A program made the translations under genes and the position numbers. A DNA stretch of 64,000 nt. Source: a virus. Taxonomy: Duplodnaviria > Caudoviricetes. Positions within the stretch are counted from its first letter, which is position 1; the number at the start of each line of letters is the position of its first letter. Under the pieces are notes generated by a model that saw only the letters and a list, made by a program, of their open reading frames with translations, searched no databases and was not told the origin of the DNA. Below are positions 3,795-64,000 of the stretch, in pieces. The stretch is taken from positions 55,238-119,237 of the IMG/VR virus record IMGVR_UViG_3300012007_000001, one strand, 5' to 3'.

Positions 3795-3844
3795 AATCGA
3801 AATGCCTGTTTACTGTCGGCTCGTCAGTTCTAAATGGTTGTGAT

Positions 3845-3872: not shown

Positions 3873-3884
3873 GTATGCTGTTTA

Positions 3885-22904: not shown

Positions 22905-22920
22905 CTTCTTTTCCGTTTAG

Positions 22921-22991: not shown

Positions 22992-23211
22992 GTATGACGG
23001 CCTTTTGAGCCGCCCACCTTGAACACCGCCAATGTCGTCACCGTCAACAGCCGCAGGATTTAAGCGGACATCCACCCACATGCTACCCTTTCCGATTTTT
23101 TGGGGATTGCGCAGATACTCTCACATGCTTTAGGCTCGCTTTCGGTATAGGTCGCGCCCCTTAACGCTTCCAAATGTACTCGCTTGTGGTGCGTGTTCTG
23201 ATACAAGACTG

Positions 23212-23283
23212 TACCCCATGCAAGAATCGAACTTGCCTTGACAGGTCGAAAACCTGTAGTCCTAACCGATAGACGAAAGGGGC
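23212..23283 (-). tRNA. tRNA-Glu(TTC)
   Basis: GTCTATCGGTTAGGAC D arm, ACAGG-TTTTCGA-CCTGT, GCAAG-TTCGATT-CTTGC; one T-T mismatch in the acceptor. Confidence 0.85.
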
Positions 23284-26609: not shown

Positions 26610-26921
26610 TTCACCGCAAACAATGAAAACAGCAGCATGTAAAACATCGGTAAACACAGGCGATTCCAGCGGTTTTGCCATTCAGATTGTGGTTCTGAAT
26701 GTCCTCGGTTCGAGTCCGAGCGGGCACCCTGACATTGGAAAGGTCTCAAAAATTGCTAAATACCAGTGTTTATCGGCTTTACGCGATATACCGCCATAGC
26801 TGAATCACTGATGAAGAAATGCAATTTTTGGGGCTTTTTTGTTTGCAAATTCACCGCAAATTCACCGCAAATTCACCGCAAATCAGCCTCAATTCGGAAA
26901 ATTCACCGCAAATTCACCGCA
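26608..26921 (+). repeat. Six copies of AATTCACCGCA (integrase arm-type sites)
   Basis: 26608-26618; tandem x3 at 26848-26880; tandem x2 at 26900-26921; on both sides of the att core. Confidence 0.85.
26681..26729 (+). other. attP core = 3' part of tRNA-His(GTG)
   Basis: TCAGA-TTGTGGT-TCTGA anticodon arm, CTCGG-TTCGAGT-CCGAG T arm, 3' acceptor strand; 5' half absent; 210 bp upstream of the integrase. Confidence 0.85.
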
Positions 26922-26937
26922 AAAAATTTATCGAATT

Positions 26938-30437: not shown

Positions 30438-32306
30438 TTACTTGAAATATTTGTTTCTGAATGCCTGTGAAAACAGTGTGCGCTCTACCAGTGTATAGGT
30501 CTCTTTCTCCTTTGCCGTGATAGGCCGCTTCCACTTCAACCTGTTCTTTATCGTATCAATGGCCACACGCACAATCGACTCAGCTGTTATGCCGTCTTTC
30601 GGCTGTAAGCCCTTTGCCATCATCTGACCCACGAACATCTTTATATATTCGTTTTCAGCCTCCAGTTCTTTCAGGTACATGGTCTTGAACTCCTTCAACA
30701 AACGCACAAATCTGTAATACTTTGACCTGTGCAGGCGCGAATTGAGGTAGTACTCAACATCTTCAATCTTCATGTCATCGTAATTCAGAATGCCGTCGTT
30801 GTCAAGGGCGACCCGAATTGAAACGCGATTCTTCCGCTTGCTATCTTCCCAATAACCGCGTACCTCATTCGTTGGCATGTATTTAATCAAGAAATCGTAA
30901 TTATCCCAATAGCCTTTACGCAAACCATCATCCAGTTTCTCCAGTGTGTAGATTCCGCTGGCTGGCAGTTCAGGGGCAGACCATTTGTTAGTGTAGTATT
31001 TCACGAAATCATGCTCGTCATTAAAATGATAGCCGCGTTCCGTGCTATACTTCGCTACTATAATCAACACGCGCTTACCTTCGCAAAGCTGGCTGTTCAT
31101 AGACTTCATCCATTCTTCGACAGACGGCCTACCATCGCCAAGTGCTCTGCTGGCATCCAGTTCATACCGAAGCTGAATCTGTTCATCCGTGAATCCTTCC
31201 ATCTTGATAAGACTGCCTGTAACGGTGTGCGGCGAAAACACATCGGAGCGTTCTACCAATCCCTGCATCAAGAAAGCCACCTGCGTATATTGCTTGCGAA
31301 AACTTTCTGATTCAAGTGTTCCGCTGACATGTGTGTACTGCCTCTCCTTTTCAAGAATCTTTAGGTATTCTTCTTTGTTCGGGTACATCCTATCAAACAG
31401 ATAGATGTGTTCAGAATCTATCTTATAGAGGTTCTCACCGTTCCGAATAAGAAATACCGTATGATGGTTGGGTATATTCATTATCCTGTTTGTCATTGCA
31501 CCGCCAATGCTGCCTTCTTCTGCATACTTCTTATCCGTCCGACGCGGCTTGACGGCCACCATAGACTTCTCGTCAGGCATGAACTCCTTGAAGCGGTCAT
31601 TCTGCAACAGCCATTCGTCGAACTTGTCAACCTTCTGCCAGTCGAAATCGTCATCAATCAATGCCAGTTCCTCATCCATAAAGATTACGGCCTGCCTGAA
31701 TACTATCGGAGTGGTTTCGGGTGCTGGTTCGCCAGCGTGTAACTGTTCCACGCTTTCCTTGATGCCCGCATAGGTCTCGATGGTCTGAATGACATAATCC
31801 AGCCTTTTGACCTCACGCCCCATCTTTTCTATCATATCACGCATAGGCCGAAGCCGTGCCTCCAGTTCCCGTGTTTTCCGCTGAATCATTATATCAGCAT
31901 ACTTTCGGGTCTTTTCGGCCACGATTGCAGCCCTGTTGATATTCTCACGCAGAATCATCAAAGTGTCTTTACTGCCAAGCGACATCAAAGCCGTATCGCT
32001 GCTTTCCGTAAACTCTTCAAAGGTTTCTCCGTTCAGCAGTCTTTCGGCCATCTGCTTAATCTTTTCGACATCAACACCCAGCACACTGTAATAATGCAGG
32101 TTGTCTTTTCCGATTCTGTAATCCTTCTTGAAGGTGTTATCTATCACCTCCAGCGTTTCAGGGTTCACAGTGTCAACGACTACGCTCCCATCATCATTGA
32201 CGGCCTTAATCCTGTAGATGTCATCACGGTCGTACAGGTAGCATCCGACCTTCAACTCTTCATTGACGGCCAGCTGCAAATCCGCTTTCTTGATGATTCC
32301 GTTCAT
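30438..32306 (-). CDS. Large hypothetical phage protein (622 aa) with coiled coil
   Basis: Long ORF; motifs RQAVIFMDEE, LIRNGENLY, QGLVERS; function not recognised. Confidence 0.85.
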   Translation of the reverse strand: MNGIIKKADLQLAVNEELKVGCYLYDRDDIYRIKAVNDDGSVVVDTVNPETLEVIDNTFKKDYRIGKDNLHYYSVLGVDVEKIKQMAERLLNGETFEEFTESSDTALMSLGSKDTLMILRENINRAAIVAEKTRKYADIMIQRKTRELEARLRPMRDMIEKMGREVKRLDYVIQTIETYAGIKESVEQLHAGEPAPETTPIVFRQAVIFMDEELALIDDDFDWQKVDKFDEWLLQNDRFKEFMPDEKSMVAVKPRRTDKKYAEEGSIGGAMTNRIMNIPNHHTVFLIRNGENLYKIDSEHIYLFDRMYPNKEEYLKILEKERQYTHVSGTLESESFRKQYTQVAFLMQGLVERSDVFSPHTVTGSLIKMEGFTDEQIQLRYELDASRALGDGRPSVEEWMKSMNSQLCEGKRVLIIVAKYSTERGYHFNDEHDFVKYYTNKWSAPELPASGIYTLEKLDDGLRKGYWDNYDFLIKYMPTNEVRGYWEDSKRKNRVSIRVALDNDGILNYDDMKIEDVEYYLNSRLHRSKYYRFVRLLKEFKTMYLKELEAENEYIKMFVGQMMAKGLQPKDGITAESIVRVAIDTIKNRLKWKRPITAKEKETYTLVERTLFSQAFRNKYFK

Positions 32307-32835
32307 ATTCTAAATGGTTTTGAATGATTCTTATTTATACTTTTCTGCATACCAGTCCATCGCCATGTCCTCAAAATGGCCGACGCTGGCATCTTTGGAT
32401 TCGTCACCGTATTTTGCGGCGACTTCCGCTCTTGATGAAATGTACTCGACCTTTTCACCGTCTTTTCTTTCAAACCGCATCTCATACCGCTCATCGTGTT
32501 CACAATAGCGTGACATGCTTTTCAAATCGTGCTCTATGGTGAAGAGCAAAAACTTCTTGTCTTCCATTTTTCCGTTTTTTATTATAAGACCTTTTTTAAT
32601 TTGTTCAGTGCTTCGTCGCGTGTCTTGCCCCAACAGGCAGGATTCACATTGCCGTCATTGTCGATGATTTCAGCAGCAAGATACCAAAAATCATATTCCC
32701 ATTCGCTGTATTCCTTCTTGGCTTCACGAATCGTTTCAAACTCATCCACAATATCCTGTGTGCCTTTGTTGCACACTGCAATACTGATGCAGATGGTATA
32801 ACCTTTATACTTAACTTCCTTCATTTCCGTATGCT

Positions 32836-33354
32836 TTAGAATGTTTGACCCCAGCCCTCATTACGATGGTATTCAGCCAGCTTGCAGCCGAAACTATTGT
32901 AATAATAGACCACTTCATCACGTTCCTTGGTGTAGTCACCCTCTTGGGCTGTCTGCTGTAGGTAAGCCATGAACTCATCCTCGCTGACATGCGCCCTGTT
33001 GTACTCGTCGAAATCCAGTATCTTCATATTGAATGCTTTTGGCAGTTTCCTTGTCTGTTTCCGAAATCCGTTGTGCCACTTACAGGCATCAATGAAATCT
33101 GCTGTCGTGACCTTTTCGCCATCGCCAAGCAGGTGCATCAGCTGTGCAAAAACCTCTATCGGGCAACTGTGCGCCCTTCCGTTTATCTGAGCCGTCACAA
33201 CAAAGGCATTCTGCCTGTTGTCGTATTCGCAGACGGCATCACATTCAAGGTAGGCTTTGGCAAGTTCTGTCATCGCCCTGCACTCTTGCATGTACTTACC
33301 CAATGCAACCTGTGCGCGTTGTGCGACCTTCCGCAGCTTTGTTTCATCTTTCAT
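32836..33354 (-). CDS. Hypothetical phage protein
   Basis: 172-aa ORF in operon. Confidence 0.7.
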   Translation of the reverse strand: MKDETKLRKVAQRAQVALGKYMQECRAMTELAKAYLECDAVCEYDNRQNAFVVTAQINGRAHSCPIEVFAQLMHLLGDGEKVTTADFIDACKWHNGFRKQTRKLPKAFNMKILDFDEYNRAHVSEDEFMAYLQQTAQEGDYTKERDEVVYYYNSFGCKLAEYHRNEGWGQTF

Positions 33355-44464: not shown

Positions 44465-45169
44465 TCACAGCATGTACTTTTGGATATAGTTCAATATACC
44501 ATCAACATGCAGGCGGGCAATGGCATGACGGCCTTCATTGGAAAGCAGGAATGCCACGTCGCGCTTGTTGTCCTGAAACAGATTCTCTGTCAGAACAGCA
44601 GGGCAGGCGGTTTTTCTGATGACGTAGAGGTCTGCCTCCAAGTCACGGTCGCCGTCCGTCTTATCCATCCTGAACGGTGTCTGCTTCTCCGTGTAGTCGC
44701 CGCGCCGCTTGCCATCATCCACAATCTTGACGTATTCCTTCAAGTTGGAAAAGGCAGCGTCATACATGCACTCTGCCAAGCTGTCAGCCATCGTGCGGCC
44801 TCTTGACGTATAGCAGCACCAGCCTCCAGCACCATGCCACTTTCCATCAGAGCCAGCGGCATTGACATGGATGCTTACATACAGACACTTATCCTTTCCA
44901 TACTTTGCGCACAGGCTGTTTACAACCCTTACGCGGTATTCAAGTTCGCGGCTTTGCAGTGTTCCGCTGCCAGTCATCTTGTCTGACTTGTTAAGCGGCT
45001 CATAGTCAACGAATACCTTATACCCGTAAGACTCCAGCTTTGCCTTAACGTCAGCGACGATTTCACGGCTATAGACACACTCGCGCAGCGATTTGTCGGG
45101 TGAGCACTTACCCAAAATCTCATCAAGATGGGCAGTGCCAAGCATGACGATAATCTCTTCCTTCCTCAT
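44465..45169 (-). CDS. Endolysin, N-acetylmuramoyl-L-alanine amidase (Amidase_3)
   Basis: AH....GK.SPD..LRE, VSIHVNAA, CPAVLTENLFQDN. Confidence 0.93.
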   Translation of the reverse strand: MRKEEIIVMLGTAHLDEILGKCSPDKSLRECVYSREIVADVKAKLESYGYKVFVDYEPLNKSDKMTGSGTLQSRELEYRVRVVNSLCAKYGKDKCLYVSIHVNAAGSDGKWHGAGGWCCYTSRGRTMADSLAECMYDAAFSNLKEYVKIVDDGKRRGDYTEKQTPFRMDKTDGDRDLEADLYVIRKTACPAVLTENLFQDNKRDVAFLLSNEGRHAIARLHVDGILNYIQKYML

Positions 45170-45642
45170 ACCGTTTCCTTCATTTTGTCACCAAGAACGG
45201 AGCGACGCATTGCCTCCGCAAGAATCTCTACCATCTCCTCCCTGCTTAACACCTGCTTTGCAAGTCTTTCTGCACGGGCGATTTCCGAATGCACCTTCTC
45301 ATCTGCCTTTTCGCGCACTGACAGGAACTCCACGACACACCAAAAGATTGCCACCGCAATGGTAATCAATGGGAGGCCAAAGACAATATCCCATCCGAAC
45401 CACTGATACAGCTTTGAAAAGTGAATCAGAACGTCGATAAGCGTTGCTATCAGCAGACAGCCGTGATATAGCACGAACTTGAATCCTGTACGCTTCAAGT
45501 AGTCCGATTTCCACTTCTCTTTCCTGTACCAAGCCTTATACATGCCTGATGCGAGGTCGATGATAATTGCAAGGAAAACGACGATGATGGAGATAACCGC
45601 AATCAGCATCATGGCTTCCGTTCCTTCTAATAGTTCTTTCAT
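45166..45642 (-). CDS. Holin
   Basis: Three TM segments, DLASG..KA, E.LSVREKA; ATGA overlap with the endolysin. Confidence 0.85.
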   Translation of the reverse strand: MKELLEGTEAMMLIAVISIIVVFLAIIIDLASGMYKAWYRKEKWKSDYLKRTGFKFVLYHGCLLIATLIDVLIHFSKLYQWFGWDIVFGLPLITIAVAIFWCVVEFLSVREKADEKVHSEIARAERLAKQVLSREEMVEILAEAMRRSVLGDKMKETV

Positions 45643-46039: not shown

Positions 46040-46501
46040 TCAGTAGCAGACTATAAGCACAATAATAAGTTGTGTGAATGCCGTCAGTTCAGCCCAAAAC
46101 GTATAGCATTTCCACCAGTACACAAGCATTGCGGCAAGATACAGCAGCCAGCACAGCAGACACTCCCAGCAGTTAGCGGCCACAATGTACGTTGCGCATA
46201 TACCGCATATCCAGCCGCCGACATAGTGCAGCAGCTTTGCCTCCGTCTTATAGTAGGATGAAGCGGCCACGCAGCACAGGCCGACGATGCAGAGGAAGCC
46301 TATCCACTGCCTGTTTTCGGGCAGGTGCTCCATGATGTCGGGCATCAGCAGAATCCCCATGAGGGCAGTCCACGAAGAGAATGCCCAATGCGGGATGATG
46401 TATGCCATTTCCGATATGGAATCCAGTACGCCGCCTTTCTTGCAGGTGGCATGTCCTACGCCGATAATCGTCAGCGTTATTGCTAACCAAGTCGTAATCA
46501 T
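46040..46501 (-). CDS. Multi-pass membrane protein
   Basis: About five hydrophobic segments; SISE.AY motif. Confidence 0.75.
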   Translation of the reverse strand: MITTWLAITLTIIGVGHATCKKGGVLDSISEMAYIIPHWAFSSWTALMGILLMPDIMEHLPENRQWIGFLCIVGLCCVAASSYYKTEAKLLHYVGGWICGICATYIVAANCWECLLCWLLYLAAMLVYWWKCYTFWAELTAFTQLIIVLIVCY

Positions 46502-47244
46502 AGCGTGTACTCAAGCATTGGGGGATAACCATTCGTGTAGTCGTAAGCCGTCAGTTCCTCTTCGGTCTGCAATGCCCTTGCAGCCATCAGATGCGCCGTA
46601 GTAACGCCCATGCACTGCGTCGCATAGACCTCCAGCTGCGTAATCATGCCGTCAAGCACGTTGCAGGGGAGTTGGGTCTGAATGCTGCCAAGCACAAAGG
46701 GGAAGTTGTCGATACCAGCCTTTTGGAAGCGGTCAAGCGACGTTACCAGCGACTCGCGCATGGGCTTCGTCAGCCAGTATTTATCGCCGTTGATGATGAA
46801 TGCGTTCACGGCATCCGAAATGTCGCGGTTCTCGATTTTCTGCAACACCAATGCACGGGTGTTTTCCAGCGCGTCGAAACCTTCATCGTCACCGAGGCCG
46901 TTATCCATTGCGAAACGAAGGGCTTCACGGGCTATGACCTTTGCAGCACCGCGCCACCGCTGCATCTCCGTAAAGGCATCGGCGGCTTCCATGTCGCTTT
47001 GGTTGGCCATGTAGTTGTTTCTTACTGCATCCATCCTGTCGGCTGGATATTCATTGTTAATCAGCGCACTGACCAAGGCCGAATAGTCATCGACACAGAT
47101 TCTATCTTCCGTCAGCAGCGTTACAGAACTGGCCTCGAACTCTTCTTCAATCTCTTCGATGCCGTAGTTCACGGTGGTATGGAATCCCGCTGGGGTTCTC
47201 GATACCGTTACGAATTGCGGTCTTTCTGAATACCTCATAACCAT
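46498..47244 (-). CDS. DUF4376-like tail-fibre assembly-associated protein
   Basis: SDAVNAF.ING..YWL....R..L, LEVYA..C..VT..H, YDYT.GYP..L. Confidence 0.7.
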   Translation of the reverse strand: MVMRYSERPQFVTVSRTPAGFHTTVNYGIEEIEEEFEASSVTLLTEDRICVDDYSALVSALINNEYPADRMDAVRNNYMANQSDMEAADAFTEMQRWRGAAKVIAREALRFAMDNGLGDDEGFDALENTRALVLQKIENRDISDAVNAFIINGDKYWLTKPMRESLVTSLDRFQKAGIDNFPFVLGSIQTQLPCNVLDGMITQLEVYATQCMGVTTAHLMAARALQTEEELTAYDYTNGYPPMLEYTL

Positions 47245-47263
47245 CTGTTTTATTTGTTGAACA

Positions 47264-48775
47264 CTAATAATCGTATGGGAGCACCAGTTCCCTGTATTTC
47301 CGTAATGCCCTGATGCTTTCGTAGTGGCCACGGATGTAGAAGTACCTGAACAGCCCTTCGCCCATAGAGTCGAGGATTTCCTTACGCTTTTCGTAGGTCT
47401 GCTTGCCCTTGCAGAATCCAAGATATGAGTTTATGACCTGTTCGATGCGCTTGCAGTCAAGGATGGTCAGTTCGTCCTTTGACTCTATAAGCCGCCTGAA
47501 ACCTATCGCCCGTTCCTCAAAACGAGCCAGCGTCCTGTTTGAAAGGTACAACCTGTTAGGCTTGATGTACGTGCCGACGAATGAAAGCCCGTGCGCGATT
47601 GGCTGCAAGTACCGCTTATCCTTGTGCATCTCCAGTTTCAGCTTATCACGAAGGAAAACCTCCATCTTCGGGATGGCACTAAGCAGGAAATCCAAGTCAT
47701 CGCACTGGTTATCCCAATCGTCAACGAAACGCTCGTATGAGAAATTCTGCCGTCTGAACAGGAAAAGCACGTACATGTCGAAGAATGACATCAGGAAGTT
47801 CGCAAACAGCTGCGTCGTAAGGTTGCCGATGGGCTCGCCCTTCTCGTCGCCGCAACCGAACAGCGACTTATTGGGCGCAAGACCTTCCCAAAGCGTAATC
47901 GGCGAGTTCAGCACGCAGTCGTTTTCAGGATGGTGCATGACGATGACCTCAACCGTGCGGATGAGAATATCCCAATACATTTCAGGCATATCGGAAAGCC
48001 CAAGGCGTGACAGGATTTCATAGTCAATCCTCTGCCAGCCCTCACGCTGCCAGCGTTTGCGCCAGCGGGTGATGAAGCGTTCCAAGAGATACCAAAGCAG
48101 CTTCTTGTCTATCGACATGAAGAATCCCGTCAAGTCGCCCTTGAACACCCAAGCGGGCTTAGTGAATCCGTCAGACACGCGCCTCATGCCGTCGGCGCAG
48201 TGGCGCACGCAGGCATCTGTTCCGAATCCCTTGCGGCAGTTGAATGACACGTTACCCTGTGATATGAAACGCTCCTCAAACAGCGGCTCCAGTCTGAGGC
48301 ATACCCAGTGATGCACGATGCGGTCACGGAAATTCGCCGCAAACACCTCGCGCAGCTTCGGGTATTTCACTAAAAAGCAAGTGGAAGTCGTTGGTCTGTA
48401 GATACCAGTCCACAACTCCCAAGCAAGACACGGCAAATCCGCATAGGCAATCTGCATGTATTCGACTGCCTGCGTAGAAGCCATCTTGCCACGCAAGCAA
48501 TCCTTGTAAGCATCCACCACGGAATCATAGAATGCACTGTATAAGCCCCCACATGCGGCCACAGGACGAACAACGTTACTGTTATACTTGTTGTTGTTGT
48601 TGACGTTACCATTGTTGAAATTCACGTTCCAAGCATTGTTGCTGTTGTTCTCAGTAACAGACCAGTAGTTGCTGTCTTTCTGCGGTTTTGCATCTTCGTA
48701 ACTGCGACGGGCTGTAAAGTCCATCACAGTAAACCGCCCATTTAGGGGATTATGTAACACTCTGCCAGTCATCAT
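47264..48775 (-). CDS. DGR reverse transcriptase (TR lies within its 5' coding region)
   Basis: PKLREVFAANFRDRIVHH, SFNCRKGFGT, KGDL.GFFMSID, PIGNLTTQLFAN, RFVDD, FVG. Confidence 0.95.
   Translation of the reverse strand: MMTGRVLHNPLNGRFTVMDFTARRSYEDAKPQKDSNYWSVTENNSNNAWNVNFNNGNVNNNNKYNSNVVRPVAACGGLYSAFYDSVVDAYKDCLRGKMASTQAVEYMQIAYADLPCLAWELWTGIYRPTTSTCFLVKYPKLREVFAANFRDRIVHHWVCLRLEPLFEERFISQGNVSFNCRKGFGTDACVRHCADGMRRVSDGFTKPAWVFKGDLTGFFMSIDKKLLWYLLERFITRWRKRWQREGWQRIDYEILSRLGLSDMPEMYWDILIRTVEVIVMHHPENDCVLNSPITLWEGLAPNKSLFGCGDEKGEPIGNLTTQLFANFLMSFFDMYVLFLFRRQNFSYERFVDDWDNQCDDLDFLLSAIPKMEVFLRDKLKLEMHKDKRYLQPIAHGLSFVGTYIKPNRLYLSNRTLARFEERAIGFRRLIESKDELTILDCKRIEQVINSYLGFCKGKQTYEKRKEILDSMGEGLFRYFYIRGHYESIRALRKYRELVLPYDY
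48553..48675 (-). repeat. DGR template repeat (TR), 123 bp
   Basis: 16 Asn (AAY) codons, 43 adenines; aligns without gaps to the VR with 14 mismatches, 13 at TR adenines. Confidence 0.97.
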
Positions 48776-49302
48776 TCTTTTCTTTCCGAATCGTCCGACG
48801 ATTTAGCACCCTCGTTCATAGTATAATCTCGCCACGCCACAAGCTGCGACCTTATACTCTTCACCAACGCTTTCACCTTGTTGTCAAGGTCTTTTCCGAC
48901 CAAAGGCAGACGGTGAGACTTGTCAGCATCACATTCCTCTTCTGTCTTTTTCTTCGATGGCATTTCAATTCGGCGAAGCGTCGTGAAATCATCACTCAAA
49001 TCCTGCACCAGCACACAGGCGCAATCCAAATACCAAGCCCTTTCGTCGGGTGTCCGCGAAATACTGGCCATGCCAATAGACTTCTTGACTTCCGACGCAG
49101 TACCCAGCATTTGGTCAAAGAACTTCGTGAGGCTCCTCGGACTTTTCGCCATCAAGGTTGTCACGATGTACTTCAAATTGGCCGATGCCCTGTAAACAGG
49201 CAGTTGAGCCAGTGTTTTCTTGTTCTTACTCTTCTTGGTGTTGCTATCTTCCACCGTCAACTGTGGTATGACAACGCCTGTCGGATGAACCGTCTCTTGC
49301 AT
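48772..49302 (-). CDS. avd: Avd-like accessory variability determinant (four-helix bundle)
   Basis: LPVYR...L....P; ..R..YL; IRSQLVAWR; between target and RT with ATGA overlap. Confidence 0.8.
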   Translation of the reverse strand: MQETVHPTGVVIPQLTVEDSNTKKSKNKKTLAQLPVYRASANLKYIVTTLMAKSPRSLTKFFDQMLGTASEVKKSIGMASISRTPDERAWYLDCACVLVQDLSDDFTTLRRIEMPSKKKTEEECDADKSHRLPLVGKDLDNKVKALVKSIRSQLVAWRDYTMNEGAKSSDDSERKE

Positions 49303-49355
49303 CTTGCTTTATCTTTCTTTTCTGTTTTCAAATATTCTTTTTTGTTCCGAAGAGT

Positions 49356-49382
49356 GGCGGGGCTGTTGGAACAGCCCTCGCC
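49356..49382 (-). promoter_or_regulatory. DGR hairpin/cruciform downstream of the VR
   Basis: GGCG-A-GGGCTGT-TCCA-ACAGCCC-CGCC, 5 bp after the target stop codon. Confidence 0.75.
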
Positions 49383-49387
49383 GAATG

Positions 49388-52300
49388 TTAAATGTCATAA
49401 ATAAATGCGGCCACAGGACGAACAACGTAACTGTTAGCCTTGTTGTAGTTGCCGACGTAACCATTGCTGAAAAGCACGGTCCAAGCATGGTTGCTGCTGT
49501 ACTCAGTAACAGACCAGTAGTTGCTGTTAGTGGGAATGTTAAAAGGTGTTGTCGTGACCCCCGCATCTGCAACTCTTTTTAAGATATTCGCAAATAACGG
49601 CAGCAACGCCTCGCTGTCGGGATTCTCGTTGGCGTTTTCAGCCGTACACCTTCCACCTGCTTCATACGTCTGATGGCCGCAACTGTTATAGAAGAAATTG
49701 TAAATCCTTGCCAGTAGTCCGCATGTCGGCAGCAGCCACTTATTGCGCTTATACTGGTCATTCAGCGTTCCTTCAACCGTCGGCTCATACACATGGCAGG
49801 CGAATGCTGCTGGGTAGAATAGCTGCCTATAGCGCGTCGGTACTGAAACGCCTTGCGCTGTCATCGCCGCAACAAGTGCCTGCATTGCATTCGCAAGTTC
49901 CGTCGGTGTGGTCGGATAAGACTCGCCGAGATAGCCGTTGATGATGGATTTTGCATGGTTGATGACGATTTCATTCTTTGATTCCACGTCGAAGTCCGAG
50001 CAGCTTCGGTTCTGCACCAACACGGCATAGCCGTCATCTTGTGCCGCGTCATGGAATGAAGCGTCATTGATGTATCGGTAGTCAGTGTTCGCAGCATCCG
50101 TCGGGCTTGTAATACCCGATGACGTAAGGTTTGCCATTGCGGTGTCAACTGCATTGGAAAGACCTGCGGCTGTGGCAATCTCGTTATACACCGATGACGG
50201 GAATCCGTTCTGTGCCGCTTCTTCGGGATAGATACCCCAAACGTGTGAGCCAGTGTTGTAGGTCGAATCGTCAGACTTGCAGACGGCATTCTCCTTGGCA
50301 TAGACCCACAACTTCCGCTGTGAAGCAGAAATCTCGTCAACCTTCACGATAGCACCAACAAGTTCCTTCGACTGGTCGAACTCATCATCAAACGCACCGT
50401 CTGCATAGGCGAAATCACCAATCTTAGGGAGTCGCTTATGGAATCCAACCTTCTTGTTATATGTCATCACCGTGCCATCAAGCAGCGTGACTGTCATCCT
50501 AAGAGTGAATGTCCTGTACTCATTGTTAGGGTAGGTGTTCGTGACGTTCACTGTACCTTTGACGGCATCTGTAATTGTCGCATAGGCGGCTGCACCAGCC
50601 TCGACGAAAGCAAACGTAATGGCCTCATGGCCGCTTACGACGGCAACATTGTTACCCACGTCGTTAGTCGATGCTGCGCTCCAGTCGTTATGCGTTCCAA
50701 GCGTATAGAGGTACTTCTCGCCCCTAATCATCACGCCGTTCACGTCACGCTTCTGATAGTCGATATACAGTCTGTCATTCGGTATTCCGCTCGGTACGGT
50801 CTGAATGTCGCCGAACTTCCTGATAAGCTGGATGACCTCGGAGAATGAAAGCCATCTGTCATTGGCCGCACGCAGCATGACAACCTTTCCGTACATGTTG
50901 CACGTCGTAGCACCTGCCAGCCACATCAGCACGTCGGCCTTGGTGTCAGACCAGTTGACGTGTCGGAGGTTGAGCAGCGTCAGCCTTGCAGGTGTAGCAC
51001 CGCCAGCGGAACGCTCATCGTAGATGTCCCTGAGTATCTGCTGCACGTTCAGGCTTGGACTGTTGGTGACGGTCAGTGAATCCAGCTGTGAGCCGCTCTC
51101 GATGGAAAGCGTGGCAAGGCTGGGCTGGGCTGTCAGCGACAAAGCCGTGATAGCGGATGGCAGTCTGAGGATTGTCAGTGATGCCGTCTGCGGAACATTC
51201 ACAGCACCGATGCTGGTCTGTCTGAGGTCAACCTCTTCGCACAGCGTCAAGGCCGATATGTTCAGCGGTGCGCGTTCAGTGGCCGACAGCGTAGAACATC
51301 CCTTCAACGACAGCTTTCTGAGGCGCGTACCCGTTGCGATACGGAATGAAGCGGGTCTGAAAGCAGGCTCATATCCATCCGTAGGCACGCTGACAGGCAC
51401 GGCAGAAGGATTATTCGCCAGTGTCGCGGGTGTCGGGTAGTACGTCGTAGGCTCTGCGATAAGTTCCGTCAGGCGACGGCCATCAAGGTTGAATGCGATG
51501 TTCGGGTCGCATGACATATCACCGATATTGCCGACAGAACGGTAGTAGTTCAGTCCGAACAGCGAAACGCCGTTATCGGAAATCACCACCGACGGCACGG
51601 TGTACTCCAGTACCTCGTTAGGTGCGACGCGGGTATATGTCGGCTTGGAGTCCGTTTGGAAGCCGAAGCATGGATAGATATACTGGTGCGGCTTCACATG
51701 GAATGTGTACGTCGGCGTTGTCACACCATCGGGCAATGCCTTGGCGTTGAATGCCATAGAAGCACCAGCATCCGCAAGTCCAGTCAATCCGTTACGGGCA
51801 TGTGACTGTGCAGGAAGGAACTCACCGAAAACGGCGTATGATGCCATATAGACAAGTCGGCGGTTCATAAACTGCAACTCAGATTCCAGCTGGTCGCCCA
51901 TTGACTGCGTAAGCGGGTCGATGGTGTCACGTCCCAAGAAGCCCAGCATGGCGGGGAACTCATAGCGGATTCGCGCCGCCTCGTTGAATGCCACCTGCGG
52001 GAAATAACGCTGGATGTCGAAGATGTAGCGGTTCAGTGCCTTCCATACACCGCTCATCGTGTCTGACTCTGCCGAGCCGATACCGCCAGTAAGCGCAGCC
52101 ATCAGTGACAGGATGCTGTTCAAAGCCTGTGAAAGTTCATGCGTACCTTCCCACATTTCCTCGCAGAGATTGAACAACGTGTTCTGCCTACCTTCATAGC
52201 AGCAGTCGGTATGGCCTGTGTCTTTGTCATCCCACGGGTGCATACGGTCAACGTAGTACGGCTTGGACTGGAAGCCGTTGTTGTCGGTTGCCAGCGTCGT

Positions 52301-55300
52301 GTCAACGTCATCCTGATGCAGTTCTATAAGTTTCGTCACGGGGTCGATGACATAGTAGGTGTTCTTTGAGCAGTTGTCAGTACCAGCGATGAAATGGTTC
52401 TCAAAGCAGTAGTGGAACTTCAATGATGACACCTTGAAATACGTGCCGATGTTCTGCCTTGCATCCTCTACCACGCATTCGATGAACTTCTGATTCACGG
52501 CTTCGTGGTTGGCTTTCTGCGCGTCTGTCATCGAACTCCAGTTCATGCCCGTGTAGTCGCGGATGTCAACAGAATCGTAGGCGTAGCCGTTCCAAAGGCC
52601 AGCATCCACCCATGCCCTGTCATAGAAATCCCAGCGTTTCAGCTTATAGTCGTTGGAGTCCGTGCCAGCGTTTGAGCGACACCACCACTTCTCTTTCTTC
52701 TGAAAGTCGGTGAGATTCTCCTGCTGAAGCTGTGCGAACGTTCCACGGTACAGGTTGATTCGCGGGTTGTGCATATACAGGAAATTCCAAGCGGCCTTAT
52801 AGATGTTGGTAAGCCTTGACTTCGGATATTCCAGCACGTCGCCGCCTGACTCCACCTCATCGACTGCGCCGCCGTCGAAGCCAACGCATTTCTCTGCCGA
52901 CACCTGAACCGTCTGCCCTGTCACCTGTCCTGTCTGTTCGTCAACGACATCGACAACGGAAGTCTTGCGGTACATCCACGCCTCAGATGCGGGGTCATAA
53001 AATACCTTTGCCTCCTGATTGCCATGAGCGACATCATCCCACGGTGCAACCATATCGCCGAGAATAGTGTTGTTGTTCGCACCTTCTGCCATAGCGAAAT
53101 AGTCATGGCCGTTGGGTCTGTAGTGGGCATCGCCTACAGTCGTAATCTTGGAAGCCTTCTTGCTGTAGCCCCATGTGGGTTTATCCATCTTTCCAGGGCC
53201 GAATGCGCCTGGCCCGCGATAGACAGCGGAAGCAGGGTCTTCGTTATCCCTGTCAGCAGTGAAGAACATGACGGGCTCGGTGTGCTTTGCGACCAATGCC
53301 GTAGGCGTGTCGCGCTGCAAGGAGTTCTGACCGCAGAAGCGGGTGTGCAACTCATGATAGAGCCAGTTGATGCCGATAAGGTGCGACTGCATGGAAGAGG
53401 CGTAGTTGATTTTCAGCACAAGTTTCTGTGCAAGCGGCTGGTTGGGCGAAATCATGTAGCCACGTCCACGGTACTTGCCGTTTCCGTCAACCCATCCGTC
53501 GGGTACGGTCACATAGCCATCGGCATACGGATAATCCTTAGTTCCGTTTCCTACGGGGAAGTCGGAGCCGAGGTTGCCGCCATAGATGCTGACCACCATA
53601 TTGCCCTCACCGTCATCATGCGGCTGACCGACATGAATTGACGAATGGAAGTCCGCAACGGCCACTTGGATAGTATCTTCAACGTCGCCTATCTTGAATT
53701 GCAGGTTACTGTAATAATATGTGTTGGCCGTCGTACCCTGACGCTTCGGTTTCAGCGACTTTGTTTCCTTGCAGATTGTTCCCGAACATTCGGGCTGGTA
53801 TGTGCCATCGTAGCCGAAGCACTTCATCTCAATCCATCCCTTCGAGCCGCTGGTTTCCTTGATGTAGGGCTCCACGCCGTGCCATACCATCGTGCGCAAG
53901 CCGTTTGCCTGACATGCCTCCAGTGATACAAGGCCGTTGGTCTTGGTAATGGCGTTGGCCTGCTTCACGCGGATTTTCTCCTCGCTGGCCGGAAGCGTTG
54001 AGATGTAGTTCTGAACAGCGGCCTTTGGGTCGATGGCCTGTGCCGAGTTATCCCAAATGCGGATGCCGTAGATGTCGATGTCCGCACCTGACTGGCCAAT
54101 CTTGATGCCGCCGTTAGACATGGCAGCGGTACAGAACTCACGCGCACCTGACTCCGTGCTGAATCGCAGTTCACGGCAAATGACACCATTGATTAGCACA
54201 CGCACAAGGTTCAGCGTTCCCCTTGCACGGCTTTGGTCGGCTGCAATGGCCAAACCGTCGCCGTAGGTGTTAGGCGCGACGTTAGGCACGATGTTGATGC
54301 TGATGTGCGTGCGCCTGTCCTCACTCCAGCGGAAATCCGTTTCGGTCTCTACACCTTCTGAAAGTGCCGATGCCATAGTTCCTACCATCGGGCGCATACG
54401 AAGCCCAAGGTAAGTGCCACGGCCTGCGTCAAGCACCTCGCAAAGCTGGATGATTGGGTCATCCTCGTTTACGACGTTACGGACACAGAAATCTATGTCA
54501 ATGGTCATCGTTGAGTCGGGCGACGCAAGGAACTGCGCAAACGGGTTGTACTGGATGTTAAGCAGACAGCCAGCGGGGATGCGGAGCACCTTGTTGCCGT
54601 CATCATCGACAGTCCATCCGTCCGTTCCGTCCATCTTGAATCCGTCGCTCCATGTGCTTGCCACCAGTGCGTTGTTGTTGCGGGCGTTAAGGATGCGCTT
54701 CGGGTTGGCCTCCGAGTTGTTGCGGGTCTTCGGGTTCAGCAGGAACACCGAGCCTGCCGTCGGCTGGAAGCCGCCAGTATTATCCACCTTGACATACATA
54801 TAGCCTGTGCCGTAGCTGTCTGCCAAGAAGTCAACAAGCGTACCGTTGTCGTTGCGCACGGCATGTAGGAACGTGTCGAAGTCATCAGCGACGGCCTCGC
54901 CTGCGTTCTGCTCGATTTCAAGCGTGGCGTTCAGGTCATACTGCTGTCCTGCCTGTGCCGTGACCTCCTGATTGAAGTATTCCGTCTGTGTCGTTGTCAG
55001 GATGTTGTCGCTTCGGTCTGTCATCAGCAATGAGAACGTCACGGGGTCGCCTTGGTTTGTATATACGCCCTCGATAAGTTTAGGCGAATAGACTGCGTAC
55101 TGACATACGCGGCCTGACACGAAGTTGTCAATGGAAGAGGCGATGCTCTGAATCAGCAGGCGGGGCTGCATCAAGGTCGCTGGCTGGTTGGTGTTGACCA
55201 TCATCAGCTGGTGCTCGATGACATCCGACGTGATTGTGCCGTCGTTTCCGTCCGCTGCCGTGAGCCACGCCCTTACGGTATGAACGCCAGTGCGGAGTAT

Positions 55301-56155
55301 GCCCTTCGTTCCTGCGCCGTCCTGACACTGCACGGTGATGGAGCCCTGCTGTGCTGCTGAATAGTCTATCGTATCGTTATGGCCTGTATATCCGTCAACA
55401 CCCGACACCTGTATATGCAGGGTCTTTGCCACGTTGCCCTCAATCATAAAGTTCAAGGGGAGCGATGTAAGCTGGCTGGCCTGTACTGGCTGCGCCCAAT
55501 TCGTCTGTAGGGTTACGGCCAAAGAAACGGAAGCGATTTTCAGGATGACGTTGCCGCTGGCTACTGTTGCATCTTCACCGCTGGAGTCTGTATATCCGAA
55601 CGTAGCCCTCAAGCGGATTTGGTTCTGACGGCCTGTAAGAAGGTACTGGCCGACGTTCACGGTTGTAGGATAGTCAACGGCTGACGGGTCGGAACTGACT
55701 ATAGGCTGCGATGCTACCCTCGTCCAGCTTGAGCCGTCGGTGCTTCTTTCGATGATAAGCGTACCGTTTCCGCTCATGGCCTCCTGTTCTGATGTCGCGG
55801 CGATGATGTGCAAGGCCGAGAACCTCAGACTGGCACTGAACGGGTCGCCGTCCTTTACCGCATAGTTCCTTGACGTGTCACGGTCGCAGTACAGACGCGC
55901 AACATAGGAGTCTGTCTGTGACGTAGAGATTGGTAGCTGCTGCTCGTCGAGCAACAGTTCCGCGTTTCCTACAGGGTCGCTGATGTAAGCGGCCTTGTCT
56001 GCCGCAGACGCGAATATTTGGATGTTGTAGAACGTGCCGTCCTGCACCCATCTCACCGCGCCTGCCTTTTGGCCGAGAATCTTCTTCAAGAATGCTTCGA
56101 CTTCAATGCCTTCGTGGTTTTCCCACGCTTCCTGCAAATTGATAATATCTGCCAT
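49388..56155 (-). CDS. DGR target protein, 2255 aa: CotH-kinase-like region, LRR-like region, C-terminal C-type lectin-like VR domain
   Basis: RQGTT, DNCSKNTYY, DDVDTTLATDN.G; LxxLxL repeats; YWS.TE....AW...VRPV. Confidence 0.9.
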   Translation of the reverse strand: MADIINLQEAWENHEGIEVEAFLKKILGQKAGAVRWVQDGTFYNIQIFASAADKAAYISDPVGNAELLLDEQQLPISTSQTDSYVARLYCDRDTSRNYAVKDGDPFSASLRFSALHIIAATSEQEAMSGNGTLIIERSTDGSSWTRVASQPIVSSDPSAVDYPTTVNVGQYLLTGRQNQIRLRATFGYTDSSGEDATVASGNVILKIASVSLAVTLQTNWAQPVQASQLTSLPLNFMIEGNVAKTLHIQVSGVDGYTGHNDTIDYSAAQQGSITVQCQDGAGTKGILRTGVHTVRAWLTAADGNDGTITSDVIEHQLMMVNTNQPATLMQPRLLIQSIASSIDNFVSGRVCQYAVYSPKLIEGVYTNQGDPVTFSLLMTDRSDNILTTTQTEYFNQEVTAQAGQQYDLNATLEIEQNAGEAVADDFDTFLHAVRNDNGTLVDFLADSYGTGYMYVKVDNTGGFQPTAGSVFLLNPKTRNNSEANPKRILNARNNNALVASTWSDGFKMDGTDGWTVDDDGNKVLRIPAGCLLNIQYNPFAQFLASPDSTMTIDIDFCVRNVVNEDDPIIQLCEVLDAGRGTYLGLRMRPMVGTMASALSEGVETETDFRWSEDRRTHISINIVPNVAPNTYGDGLAIAADQSRARGTLNLVRVLINGVICRELRFSTESGAREFCTAAMSNGGIKIGQSGADIDIYGIRIWDNSAQAIDPKAAVQNYISTLPASEEKIRVKQANAITKTNGLVSLEACQANGLRTMVWHGVEPYIKETSGSKGWIEMKCFGYDGTYQPECSGTICKETKSLKPKRQGTTANTYYYSNLQFKIGDVEDTIQVAVADFHSSIHVGQPHDDGEGNMVVSIYGGNLGSDFPVGNGTKDYPYADGYVTVPDGWVDGNGKYRGRGYMISPNQPLAQKLVLKINYASSMQSHLIGINWLYHELHTRFCGQNSLQRDTPTALVAKHTEPVMFFTADRDNEDPASAVYRGPGAFGPGKMDKPTWGYSKKASKITTVGDAHYRPNGHDYFAMAEGANNNTILGDMVAPWDDVAHGNQEAKVFYDPASEAWMYRKTSVVDVVDEQTGQVTGQTVQVSAEKCVGFDGGAVDEVESGGDVLEYPKSRLTNIYKAAWNFLYMHNPRINLYRGTFAQLQQENLTDFQKKEKWWCRSNAGTDSNDYKLKRWDFYDRAWVDAGLWNGYAYDSVDIRDYTGMNWSSMTDAQKANHEAVNQKFIECVVEDARQNIGTYFKVSSLKFHYCFENHFIAGTDNCSKNTYYVIDPVTKLIELHQDDVDTTLATDNNGFQSKPYYVDRMHPWDDKDTGHTDCCYEGRQNTLFNLCEEMWEGTHELSQALNSILSLMAALTGGIGSAESDTMSGVWKALNRYIFDIQRYFPQVAFNEAARIRYEFPAMLGFLGRDTIDPLTQSMGDQLESELQFMNRRLVYMASYAVFGEFLPAQSHARNGLTGLADAGASMAFNAKALPDGVTTPTYTFHVKPHQYIYPCFGFQTDSKPTYTRVAPNEVLEYTVPSVVISDNGVSLFGLNYYRSVGNIGDMSCDPNIAFNLDGRRLTELIAEPTTYYPTPATLANNPSAVPVSVPTDGYEPAFRPASFRIATGTRLRKLSLKGCSTLSATERAPLNISALTLCEEVDLRQTSIGAVNVPQTASLTILRLPSAITALSLTAQPSLATLSIESGSQLDSLTVTNSPSLNVQQILRDIYDERSAGGATPARLTLLNLRHVNWSDTKADVLMWLAGATTCNMYGKVVMLRAANDRWLSFSEVIQLIRKFGDIQTVPSGIPNDRLYIDYQKRDVNGVMIRGEKYLYTLGTHNDWSAASTNDVGNNVAVVSGHEAITFAFVEAGAAAYATITDAVKGTVNVTNTYPNNEYRTFTLRMTVTLLDGTVMTYNKKVGFHKRLPKIGDFAYADGAFDDEFDQSKELVGAIVKVDEISASQRKLWVYAKENAVCKSDDSTYNTGSHVWGIYPEEAAQNGFPSSVYNEIATAAGLSNAVDTAMANLTSSGITSPTDAANTDYRYINDASFHDAAQDDGYAVLVQNRSCSDFDVESKNEIVINHAKSIINGYLGESYPTTPTELANAMQALVAAMTAQGVSVPTRYRQLFYPAAFACHVYEPTVEGTLNDQYKRNKWLLPTCGLLARIYNFFYNSCGHQTYEAGGRCTAENANENPDSEALLPLFANILKRVADAGVTTTPFNIPTNSNYWSVTEYSSNHAWTVLFSNGYVGNYNKANSYVVRPVAAFIYDI
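49405..49527 (-). repeat. DGR variable repeat (VR)
   Basis: Encodes SNYWSVTEYSSNHAWTVLFSNGYVGNYNKANSYVVRPVAA at the target C-terminus. Confidence 0.97.
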
Positions 56156-60991: not shown

Positions 60992-63900
60992 TTAGCCTCT
61001 GTGCGAAACCATGTATGCGTTGAATGCAGAACCATCGTACACCAGTATAAGGTGTAATATGTCACCTTCTGCTATACCGATACCGTCCGTAACGTCTTGG
61101 AAGCTGTCATTATTGCGGATGTGCGGGCAGTCACTGTCATTATAACTTCCATCTCTGTAGCCAAACACCACCATACCACTAGCACCGCTTGCACCCATTA
61201 TTATAAGTTCCAGCGCAAAGTATGTACTACTGTTTATATCAAGGTATGTCCTGCAAGCAGCCAGCGTTGGCAGATAAACCGATTTCATTGTCGAATTTTT
61301 AAGATAAACCCTGTTTCCTTTTGCAATCGGTATTGAATTGCTACCTGATGACGGTGTGAAAACATTCAGTTTGAAGCCGTCAACAGCACCGTTAAGCAGG
61401 CCGTTTCCTTCACCGACGAATGCGTAATTATAATCGGCATTTTTTGCCCGCATTACAACCGCAATATTCTTGCCGTAGCCAAACCAGTTAGCAGTATCCT
61501 CAATCTCGAATCTTGCCGTCGCCCTCGCGGTGGAATATGCAGGTAGGACGTTCGGGCCTATTCCGACAAAACTTCTATGGTCATCGTTACGAAGAATGAT
61601 ATAGGCATCATTCGTGAATGTGCCATCATCGTTTACGTTCGTCAATCCATTACCTGAAATCTTGAAGCCGCCAATCTTTCCACTGCTTGCCGTCACCTTA
61701 CCCGTGATGGTAGCATTCGTTGCCGTGAAACCGTCCATCGTGACGTTGCCATTTGAATCAACTGAGAACTTTCCGTTGATGACAGTCTTACCCTTGAATA
61801 CGATGTGGTCAGCATCAATAGAATACGATTTTCCAGTAAACGTGATTTGGTCTGCACCGATGCTAACACCGCTTTGAATAACACCTTGTGAATTTTTGGT
61901 AACAAACGCGGTCATGTGCGCTTCTGCTATCTTATTTCCGTCTGCATCGGTGGCCTCGGCGAATAGTGAAGCCCAATCCGTAGATGTGATGAATCCTGCG
62001 GCTGTGCCATAGTCTTCCGCACGCTTGTATGCAACCGCACGGACATATCCTTTCAGGTTCTCTATAAGGCTATGCGTCGATTCCTGCAACATTTCCCAAT
62101 CAGAGCCATTATACATGTGTATGGTTATGCCGCCCTCGACTGTTTGGTAGCCAGCAGGCGCATTACTGTCAGTGAATGTTACGGTAGCACATACTATATC
62201 ATACATCTGTTTCGTAATGGTCGGATGGGTTCTGAAAATACGAAGGCTGTATTGGCCGATTACTTCATACAGTGTCTTGAATGACTCAAGAAGTGAACTG
62301 TTGCTTATTGTAGCCCAACCGTTGTAGTATCGTTGCAGATTTCCGTTGTAGTATCTTAGATTACCGTTCTTATTCGTTCCACTGTTACCAAGCGACATGG
62401 TGAGATAATCGTTCGATGAAAGGTCACGGATATAGCCGCCTGAATAGTTATATGCCATGTTCACCAAGGCTGCAATAAGTATTCGCGGGTCACGTTTCTC
62501 CGTGATTTCCTTCATGTTCGCCCAATCGGTCTCCTGACCTGTTCCGCTTGTGCGTGTCACGACACACACGAACATCTCACCAGCCTCGGCCTGTGCCAGT
62601 GTAGGATTATCCGATGAAGTTTTCAGCCACAAGTCACCTTTCTTATACGGTGGTGTCGGAACGGACGCGCCGACAAAGTAATTCACTTTCTCAACGGCCT
62701 CATCATAGGCATCATCGGCTTTCTGTTTGGCCAAGTCGGAAAGTGCAGTGAGTACCGCTGTTCGTGCCGAATAGAAATCAGACCATTTGCTTCGCCATGT
62801 GCTGCCAGTGATGGTTTGCGTATTACCCATATTGGCAGACTGAATCCATGAAGGTAGGTTACTGTCCGTAGCCCTGTAGGTGTCATTCTGTATCGTACTG
62901 CCAGCACTCCAGTTAGTGTTTCCGTTCAGGTATTTACCAAGTGCGACAAAGGCGTTGATGTACGGATTAATATAAGCGGATTGGCTGATTATATAGTTGT
63001 TGTTGTTGTCAAGGCACATATCAAGTATTCCACCCGATTTATCCTTTTCATCCCATGCAGCCATGAACTCCCTCTTCACGGTCAGCTTCTCAGACGGGTC
63101 TAACTTGCCGTCACTGGCCATGTCGCCAATCTTATTCAATGCAGTGGTAGCATCGGCCTGCGCCGCATCTGCTAACTCCTTGGCTCTTGCTGTGATAACC
63201 TCCAGTAATGCGGTTAGTGCCACTTGGTAGTTATTCCATACCGTATGATAGTTTGCGGATGTCTGCGTCGGGGTGTTTGCCAGCACCGTGTCAACATTCA
63301 TATTTGCCGTTGTCAGCCATGCGGGGCGGGCTGTGCCGTTCAAGATGCTTGCAGTGGGATTCGTGCCGTTGTTCAGCATCTTCGCCAAATTGGTATAGGC
63401 AGTAACCAGCGCGTCATCCTGTGAATTGTTAGTACCGAAATAATCCTCTGCCTGTTCGATGTACTTCTTGTATTCTGCAACAGATTTCAGCCATTGCAGG
63501 TACAGGAGCGACTTCTCAGAGCCAGCACTGATGATACCGTCGGAAACGATGTCATCTATACGGTCATGCGCATCATCAGCTGTGCCCTGTGCGTGGTCTG
63601 TCAATGCAGTAAGTACCGCAGTGCGCTTTGCGTAGAAATCAGCCCACTTGCCTCGCCATGTGTCGCCCGAAATGGTCTGCGTGTTACCCATGTTGGCCTC
63701 TTGAATCCAAGAGGGAAGATGTGCGTTGTCAAAGTTCGCCAATGTCGGAATAGTCCATGTCGTACCTCCATTCAGGTATGTACCCAATGCACGGAATGCA
63801 GTAATGTACGGGGTTATCCATGCGGCTTCACTGATGATGTAATTGCCGTTTGCATCCTTTGCCATGTCAAGTATGCCAGCGGCATAGCCGTTCTCGTCGG

Positions 63901-64000
63901 TGTCCATCATTTCGTGATAGCAGGCCATGAACTCCCTCTTCACGGTCAGCTTCTCAGACGGGTCTAACTTGCCGTCACTGGCCATGTCGCCAATCTTATT
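60992..64000 (-). CDS. Large minor tail protein with ~140-aa internal repeats (5' end outside window)
   Basis: Frame open to the window edge; SDG.L.PSEK repeats; PPYKKGDLW; ITGKVTASSGKIGGF beta repeats. Confidence 0.85.
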   Translation of the reverse strand, partial: NKIGDMASDGKLDPSEKLTVKREFMACYHEMMDTDENGYAAGILDMAKDANGNYIISEAAWITPYITAFRALGTYLNGGTTWTIPTLANFDNAHLPSWIQEANMGNTQTISGDTWRGKWADFYAKRTAVLTALTDHAQGTADDAHDRIDDIVSDGIISAGSEKSLLYLQWLKSVAEYKKYIEQAEDYFGTNNSQDDALVTAYTNLAKMLNNGTNPTASILNGTARPAWLTTANMNVDTVLANTPTQTSANYHTVWNNYQVALTALLEVITARAKELADAAQADATTALNKIGDMASDGKLDPSEKLTVKREFMAAWDEKDKSGGILDMCLDNNNNYIISQSAYINPYINAFVALGKYLNGNTNWSAGSTIQNDTYRATDSNLPSWIQSANMGNTQTITGSTWRSKWSDFYSARTAVLTALSDLAKQKADDAYDEAVEKVNYFVGASVPTPPYKKGDLWLKTSSDNPTLAQAEAGEMFVCVVTRTSGTGQETDWANMKEITEKRDPRILIAALVNMAYNYSGGYIRDLSSNDYLTMSLGNSGTNKNGNLRYYNGNLQRYYNGWATISNSSLLESFKTLYEVIGQYSLRIFRTHPTITKQMYDIVCATVTFTDSNAPAGYQTVEGGITIHMYNGSDWEMLQESTHSLIENLKGYVRAVAYKRAEDYGTAAGFITSTDWASLFAEATDADGNKIAEAHMTAFVTKNSQGVIQSGVSIGADQITFTGKSYSIDADHIVFKGKTVINGKFSVDSNGNVTMDGFTATNATITGKVTASSGKIGGFKISGNGLTNVNDDGTFTNDAYIILRNDDHRSFVGIGPNVLPAYSTARATARFEIEDTANWFGYGKNIAVVMRAKNADYNYAFVGEGNGLLNGAVDGFKLNVFTPSSGSNSIPIAKGNRVYLKNSTMKSVYLPTLAACRTYLDINSSTYFALELIIMGASGASGMVVFGYRDGSYNDSDCPHIRNNDSFQDVTDGIGIAEGDILHLILVYDGSAFNAYMVSHRG

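Follow-up and report, generated by a model that had tools for sequence, protein, structure and literature searches.

Evidence for a complete BPP-1-type diversity-generating retroelement with two targets in a 119-kb phage genome

Organization of the Locus

The DNA analysed here (the window) is a stretch of 64,000 nt corresponding to bases 55238-119237 of the 119,237-bp IMG/VR virus record IMGVR_UViG_3300012007_000001, which is classed with direct terminal repeats. Between positions 47264 and 56155 it carries what is very probably (we estimate about 0.92) a complete diversity-generating retroelement (DGR) of the Bordetella BPP-1 type, belonging to a 119-kb phage and serving two targets, T1 and T2, each ending in a variable repeat (VR1 and VR2, respectively). 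The template repeat (TR), the reverse transcriptase (RT), the accessory gene and T1 are in the window, in the following positions.

49388-56155, minus: T1 target gene, intact open reading frame (ORF) of 2,255 aa with VR1 at its C-terminal end
49405-49527, minus: VR1, codons 2210-2251 of T1, a 123-nt gapless match to TR
49405-49428, minus: GC-rich 3′ end of VR1, resembling an initiation of mutagenic homing (IMH) boundary, identical to TR
49356-49382, minus: hairpin following VR1 (stem of 11 bp interrupted by one bulge, loop of 4 nt)
48772-49302, minus: accessory gene (Avd-like four-helix bundle), 176 aa
47264-48775, minus: RT ORF of 503 aa, which contains TR and starts with an ATG overlapping the stop codon of avd (ATGA)
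48553-48675, minus: TR, 43 adenines, in frame, RT codons 34-75
48682-48737, minus: RNA hairpin immediately 5′ of TR, with its arms at 48723-48737 and 48682-48708
48547-48747, minus: long-range 5-bp RNA helix, 48743-48747 (CCCTA) with 48547-48551 (TGGGG)

Template Repeat, Variable Repeat and Target Signals

Read on the minus strand, TR and VR1 aligned over 123 nt without gaps; they differed at 14 positions, and 13 of these were adenines in TR. With 43 adenines in TR, the hypergeometric probability of at least 13 of 14 mismatches falling on A is 3e-6. An initial annotation of this DNA had described the same alignment and the same adenine count, together with an identical GC-rich 3′ end, a downstream hairpin and intact frames, and each of these was recovered, the repeats at identical coordinates. 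TR, VR1 and VR2 share the same final 24 nt (GTTGTTCGTCCTGTGGCCGCAT-type, GC-rich), the hairpin starts 22 nt past VR1 (DNA fold dG −12.5 kcal/mol, z = −3.7), and the frames of the target, the accessory protein and the RT are all open. The changed adenines are positions 1 and 2 of AAC and AAT codons in the frame of the target, so that asparagine is recoded and stop codons are impossible.

The flanks of the two repeats part right after GCAT, where VR1 runs into an A/T-rich stretch with a stop codon and TR into GTGGGGGC. No hairpin comparable to that of VR1 was seen after TR in the fold comparison. In the relative L019 the stem sequence of the VR1 hairpin has changed and its pairing is kept. The GC-rich boundary and the hairpin fit the IMH/IMH* target recognition signals, and a function in homing is putative for both. 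The gap between the end of VR1 and the hairpin (window 49383-49404), like that after VR2 and those of relatives, holds 1-3 tandem copies of TTTAACA, which provide the stop codon of the target and whose copy number differs between relatives. One T2-like locus, L015, is without the hairpin.

The Second Target

The whole genome was scanned with TR, allowing at most 12 non-adenine mismatches over the 123 nt; the scan gave one further copy, VR2 (genome 32061-32183, minus), and no third VR. VR2 is outside the window, at the end of the following gene.

Genome 32050-33009 (locus L002:1534-2493), minus: T2, 319-aa ORF with VR2 at its end

All 18 differences between VR2 and TR are at TR adenines (p = 1e-10). 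The homology of VR2 with TR begins about 8 nt later than that of VR1 (genome about 32061-32175), and a hairpin of the same type follows it (z = −5.7). The only family signal in T2 is a weak Lcl_C/DUF1566 tip (22.5 bits, cut-off 34.9); by language model, the proteins closest to it are small, viral and DUF1566-like. Small genes without annotation surround T2, and the portal gene is about 5.5 kb upstream of it. T2 and TR are separated by 71.7 kb along the record and by 47.5 kb around the circle; considering that the non-adjacent targets of phage-associated DGRs are mostly less than 50 kb from the RT (Wu et al. 2018, PMC5758913), the latter distance fits the published pattern. The parts listed by the initial annotation were thus all found again, and what it had missed was VR2 with T2, the location of TR within the RT frame and the RNA structure, the last two of which are described below.

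The Adjacent Target T1

T1 was compared with Pfam, also in three pieces, and the sole match was Lcl_C/DUF1566 at residues 2199-2248 (E = 1e-6 to 4e-6), which is below the gathering threshold (27.6-29.4 bits against 34.9). No domain beyond this tip was recognised in these Pfam searches or by phmmer against the PDB, the latter giving 0 matches. The AlphaFold2 (AF2) model of the last 330 residues, based on an alignment of 9 sequences, had a predicted local distance difference test score (pLDDT) of 36 and was unusable. Homologues of T1 form more than 100 clusters of proteins of 2,000-2,350 aa. Downstream of the RT gene there are two genes of unassigned function, followed by a holin-like protein and an endolysin, and the genes upstream are uninformative. 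By analogy with the DGR paradigm and with a 2025 report on cultured phages (PMC12694917), T1 is probably tail-related, and we infer a role in receptor binding or in the tail.

Reverse Transcriptase and Accessory Protein

The RT matched phrog_1423 (E = 1e-53), and its best match in the PDB was bRT, the RT of BPP-1 (8ub7_A, E = 1.7e-21). The motifs aligned with those of bRT were KGDLTGFFMSID, PIGNLTTQLFAN and FVDD, where bRT has SQ and YMDD at the last two. The catalytic blocks D..FF.SID, PIGNLTTQLFAN and FVDD are intact, and by its sequence the RT is assigned to the DGR clade. FVDD was present in all 120 of the family representatives listed, and FVDD together with IGNLTTQ occurs in the cultured phage BS-TP1; taking this into account, FVDD and TQ are traits of the family and not lesions.

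The accessory protein was modelled by AF2 as a four-helix bundle (pLDDT 78). The top Foldseek matches of this model were 2gsc and 2rld (titled 'S23 ribosomal protein family'), and then the Avd of BPP-1 (4dwl_B and 8ub7_B, also the Avd chains of 8ub8), with target template modelling (TM) scores of 0.77-0.88, probability 1.00 and E = 5e-3 to 0.1. As modelled, the protein has the Avd fold, its kinship with Avd being one of fold alone, and it differs from the BPP-1 protein in an N-terminal extension of about 30 aa and an inserted beta-hairpin. Searches found 61 homologues of the accessory protein. Its comparison with Pfam, PHROG and NCBIfam gave no match, and a hidden Markov model of its alignment gave only noise against the PDB sequences. 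A hit to PIN_4 (E = 0.04) was at chance level and was discarded.

RNA Structure around the Template Repeat

RNAalifold was run on 8 relatives, from about 3-4 lineages, and two helices around TR were obtained. The upstream hairpin has 14 pairs, 7 of them with compensatory changes, and the 45-57-nt inserts carried by two relatives are located in its loop. The 3′ strand of the long-range helix starts 2 nt past TR, so that this helix encloses the hairpin and TR; 3 of its 5 pairs show compensatory changes. Over both helices (19 pairs), 98% of the cells pair and 10 of the 19 pairs are compensatory in these 8 sequences of about 3-4 lineages. In a control in which the 3′ partners were slid by 1-3 columns, pairing was reduced to 35-47% and the covariation score went from 0.61 to 0.09-0.17.

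In the ribonucleoprotein of BPP-1 solved by cryo-electron microscopy, an avd:Sp 'cPRT Stop' duplex was described, which is predicted for 207 of 278 DGRs (bioRxiv 10.1101/2023.10.23.563531). The helices that bracket TR are the same kind of pairing between upstream and downstream RNA, although no template:primer duplex was recognised among them. Here a non-coding spacer is absent and the two strands of the pairing are part of the sequence that codes for the RT.

Position of the Template Repeat within the RT Frame

According to the initial annotation, the order was target-avd-TR/RT. This is correct for the genes; TR, however, is not between avd and the RT gene, since it is inside the RT ORF and shares the reading frame of the VR. 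The block corresponding to the start of bRT opens 3 codons past TR; residue 15 of bRT faces residue 83 of the ORF. This arrangement was also seen in relatives down to about 60% RT identity and in BS-TP1, as well as in all 120 of the representatives listed from a family of 903 clusters; a pattern search picked the Asn-rich segment coded by TR in 114 of those 120. Wu et al. 2018 (PMC5758913) stated that TR is untranslated, whereas in this element TR is inside the RT frame, and a 'group 3' of DGRs with TR overlapping the annotated RT ORF was described by Schillinger et al. 2012 (PMC3521204).

Two starts for the RT have to be weighed. The N-terminal block N-P-L-N-G-R-F/L-T is invariant as protein while its wobble positions use 3-4 codons each; all the variable sites of the NPLNGR block are synonymous and its pN/pS (0-0.26) is like that of the RT core, which argues for TR being translated as part of the RT. 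It is therefore likely, from these codon patterns, that translation begins at the ATG upstream of TR, which is preceded by an A-rich leader besides overlapping the avd stop. We do not go further than this because the conserved block also belongs to the RNA structure; as a stand-alone proof of translation the block was rejected, being at the same time one strand of the co-varying helices. The other candidate is a GTG at codon 72, within the final 12 nt of TR, with the upstream block conserved only as RNA. Such a start would give an N-terminus of normal length, as judged from the alignment with bRT, and the co-varying strand would be enough by itself to account for the conservation of the block. 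We nevertheless consider it the less likely of the two: that GTG is itself still inside TR, there is no ATG from TR to the N-terminal block of the RT, the frame is open from the upstream ATG in all the relatives examined and in the 120 representatives listed, and the ATGA overlap, the leader and the synonymous variation also speak for that ATG. The family-wide overlap of TR and its RNA scaffold with RT coding means that one RNA has to serve as messenger, template and primer scaffold.

Variation among Relatives

The evidence from public runs consists of assembled contigs (Logan), which drop rare variants. The contigs of X2, X5 and X7 (sheep, cattle and one labelled only 'gut metagenome') stop inside VR1, and these ends fit VR heterogeneity at the level of contigs. 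The relative G001 (116 kb; its RT is 96% identical) has a circular assembly that was interrupted within VR1: the ends of the contig share an identical 104-nt flank and carry two different VR1 alleles, both of which differ from the TR of G001 at adenines only, one of them having an extra codon in the (AAC)4 run. When the VR1 of G000 was compared with that of G001, 20 of the 23 differing positions were at TR adenines, and 2 of the other 3 were TR polymorphisms. A similar picture was obtained for T2 between G000 and L021, where the 300 nt before VR2 are 95.7% identical and VR2 itself is 81% identical, with 20 of 21 differences at TR adenines. Meanwhile, the peptide coded by TR is invariant or nearly so over dozens of near-identical RT variants on many contigs. 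The initial annotation had proposed that an invariant VR among relatives would speak for an inactive element; what was found is that TR is kept and the VRs differ at TR-adenine positions. This turnover with a constant TR indicates that the lineage diversifies both targets.

Proposed Mechanism and Alternative Explanations

Considering these elements as a whole, the following mechanism can be proposed. The avd-RT transcript would carry TR, which the RT and Avd would copy into cDNA, misincorporating opposite adenines. The cDNA would then replace the 3′ ends of the two genes that share the GC-rich boundary followed by a hairpin, that is, the adjacent T1 and the remote, DUF1566-type T2. Only the Asn (AAC/AAT) codons of the lectin-like tip would be randomised, so no stop codons would arise.

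Some observations weigh against a complete and working DGR of this type. The sole non-adenine mismatch of VR1 is a T>G that stands beside an A>C in the same codon (TAT>GCT). The RT deviates from the usual motifs, with FVDD for YxDD and TQ for SQ in the DGR-typical IGxxxSQ, although these deviations are family-wide. A C-type-lectin fold of the target tip has the sub-threshold Pfam match as its sole basis, and no recognisable tail function was found among the neighbour genes of T1. Finally, in the source run one contig spans VR1, with a single allele, in an assembly of the kind that drops rare variants.

This exact copy is quite likely active at present, because all the parts are intact and 31 of the 32 TR-VR differences are at adenines. 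The competing explanation is that of a genuine DGR whose copy in this phage is now silent, the VRs being frozen traces of past homing and the variation coming only from relatives. The single VR1 allele of the source-run contigs and the non-adenine mismatch agree with it, and the overwritten TRs of relatives (see below) show that such an element is able to switch itself off. We regard it as improbable: here the RT, Avd, TR with its 43 adenines, both boundaries and both hairpins are intact, the spectrum of differences leaves almost no room for drift since the last homing, and close relatives sharing TR are visibly polymorphic. Lastly, one could think of a plain duplication of a gene end whose copies diverged through point mutation or recombination, reverse transcription playing no part. 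This explanation has nothing in its favour beyond the existence of the repeat and is refuted by the mutational spectrum: in each of two independent copies the differences are specific to adenines (VR1, p = 3e-6; VR2, p = 1e-10), one repeat being moreover rich in Asn codons, invariant and placed beside an RT of the DGR clade.

Overwritten Templates and Length Changes

In L019 (ERZ842401 NODE-2597, 3760-3875; protein P0331) the site of TR, between avd and the RT core, is occupied by a copy of 116 nt that has other bases at nearly all of the adenines, with normal flanks and with changes bounded exactly by the TR/VR homology. The same allele is present in P0328, on one 191-kb contig recorded under Logan and ENA. 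An independent case is P0234, which six contigs carry; an Asn-rich TR is retained by 14 other members of its cluster. The nearest mutated base is only 8 nt from the TR-specific flank, which makes a chimera of k-mer assembly unlikely. If real, the overwritten TRs of these two independent relatives would be the product of homing or gene conversion into TR, stripping it of the adenines it needs, and the DGR would be disabled by an off-switch of its own. Such natural cases bear on how DGR templates are protected and how they decay.

Changes in length were also observed. Some VRs are one codon longer in the (AAC)4 run, with 116 nt against the 113 nt of the TR core (L004:5-120, L022:4943-5058, L014 and L018), and the VR2 of G001 (L010) has 115 nt, a shift of the frame by +2 close to where T2 ends in that phage. 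These changes could be due to slippage of the RT on the AAC repeat or to co-existing TR length alleles.

A wider proposal, which we hold only tentatively and at somewhat less than even odds, is that in this family (about 900 clusters) the RT frame includes TR together with the RNA elements on either side of it, TR being translated as an N-terminal extension; that TR would not be fully protected from homing, with the adenine-stripped copies as a self-inflicted off-switch; and that the (AAC)4-5 length changes hint at RT slippage.

Comparison with Known Systems

The assignment to the BPP-1 type, already made in the initial annotation, agrees with the order of the genes, target-avd-TR-RT here and mtd-avd-TR-brt in BPP-1, with the adenine-specific mutagenesis at AAC codons, and with the GC-rich end common to VR and TR and the 4-nt-loop hairpin after VR. 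It agrees as well with bRT as the nearest solved RT, with the Avd fold and with the pairing RNA up- and downstream of TR. The differences from BPP-1 are also clear. The adjacent target is a protein of 2,255 aa with a DUF1566-type tip, not of the Mtd type, and there is a second, non-adjacent one. The non-coding spacer of about 140 nt is absent, TR and both RNA elements being inside the RT frame. The RT is about 175 aa longer, by an N-terminal extension, an insert of about 77 aa and a C-terminal tail, and has FVDD and TQ instead of YMDD and SQ.

Among annotated phages the nearest is Bacteroides phage BS-TP1 (PQ571274.1), which is temperate, has a genome of 111.7 kb and infects B. salyersiae. It carries the same module: gp27 (2,187 aa) is homologous to full-length T1 (26% identity, E = 5e-161); gp26, between target and RT, is annotated as 'four helix bundle protein'; and gp25 is an RT of about 495 aa, 43% identical over 95% of the length, with FVDD, IGNLTTQ and TR in its ORF. 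TR, VR and a hairpin after VR were all seen in BS-TP1, and the genomes are near in size (112 and 119 kb). On the other hand, the identity of the proteins is only 26-43%, Avd is barely alignable, and conservation of the NPLNGR block at the N-terminus does not extend to BS-TP1. No synteny was found outside the DGR module, the baseplate-side genes of BS-TP1 having no homologue in this genome. Host and habitat are also different, ruminant and Prevotella-type here, human and Bacteroides in the case of BS-TP1. The initial annotation had considered that the class of element is not new, and this is borne out by BS-TP1, which was published in 2025. According to that report (Gut Microbes 2025, PMC12694917), the DGRs of cultured temperate Bacteroidaceae phages have unannotated targets of about 2,000 aa, probably tail-related.

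With Hankyphage and other DGRs of gut Bacteroides phages (PMC6199706, PMC8143477, PMC7290462) the element shares its location on a phage, the gut Bacteroidota and a presumed receptor-binding target. Those phages would differ in their small siphovirus or crAss-like genomes, much shorter targets and more distant RTs; the RTs of Bacteroides uniformis phages are 34-36% identical to the one studied here. The overlap of the VR with a weak DUF1566 match is as in category 'd' (DUF1566/CLec2) targets such as LdtA of Legionella (PMC5758913). About half of the targets in this category are short DUF1566-only proteins (Wu et al. 2018, PMC5758913), which T2 resembles.

The main finding is thus an ordinary one, a textbook phage DGR whose module had been published before, in cultured phages of Bacteroidaceae. 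It is of value as a clean, complete reference copy for an abundant lineage of ruminant-gut phages, with two targets and evidence of natural turnover. The existence of BS-TP1 as a cultured relative puts the questions of TR overlap and overwriting within reach of the bench.

Genome, Host and Neighbouring Genes

The two ends of the record have 26 bp in common, and from these shared ends and its direct-terminal-repeat class the 119-kb record is read as a circular assembly. The runs holding the DGR element are gut metagenomes of sheep, cattle and goat, from 15 studies. Names of Prevotella sp. metagenome-assembled genomes are borne by one cluster of the T1 family and, within the RT cluster closest to this phage, by one RT. 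The host belongs to the Bacteroidales of the ruminant gut and is probably Prevotella. When the whole element was compared by megablast with 50,697 phage records, 0 matches were obtained.

A 461-aa ORF (window 26839-28224, plus) gave a weak match to tyrosine integrases (phrog_1, E = 4e-9), and relatives of the DGR genes were found on contigs of 166-350 kb, which exceed the length of the phage. Together these are hints of a temperate lifestyle, as for BS-TP1.

The lysis cassette (window 44465-45642, minus) is formed by the holin-like protein of 158 aa and the endolysin of 234 aa; it is located about 1.6 kb downstream of the RT gene, with the two intervening ORFs at 46040-47421. Two tRNA genes, Gln(TTG) and Glu(TTC), are at window 22920-23283 (minus). 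A protein of 997 aa (window 60992-63985, minus) matched the fructosamine-kinase family over a short segment (residues 386-455; PF03881, E = 3e-6) and also phrog_22546, of unassigned function; it is an odd neighbour beside a presumed tail gene.

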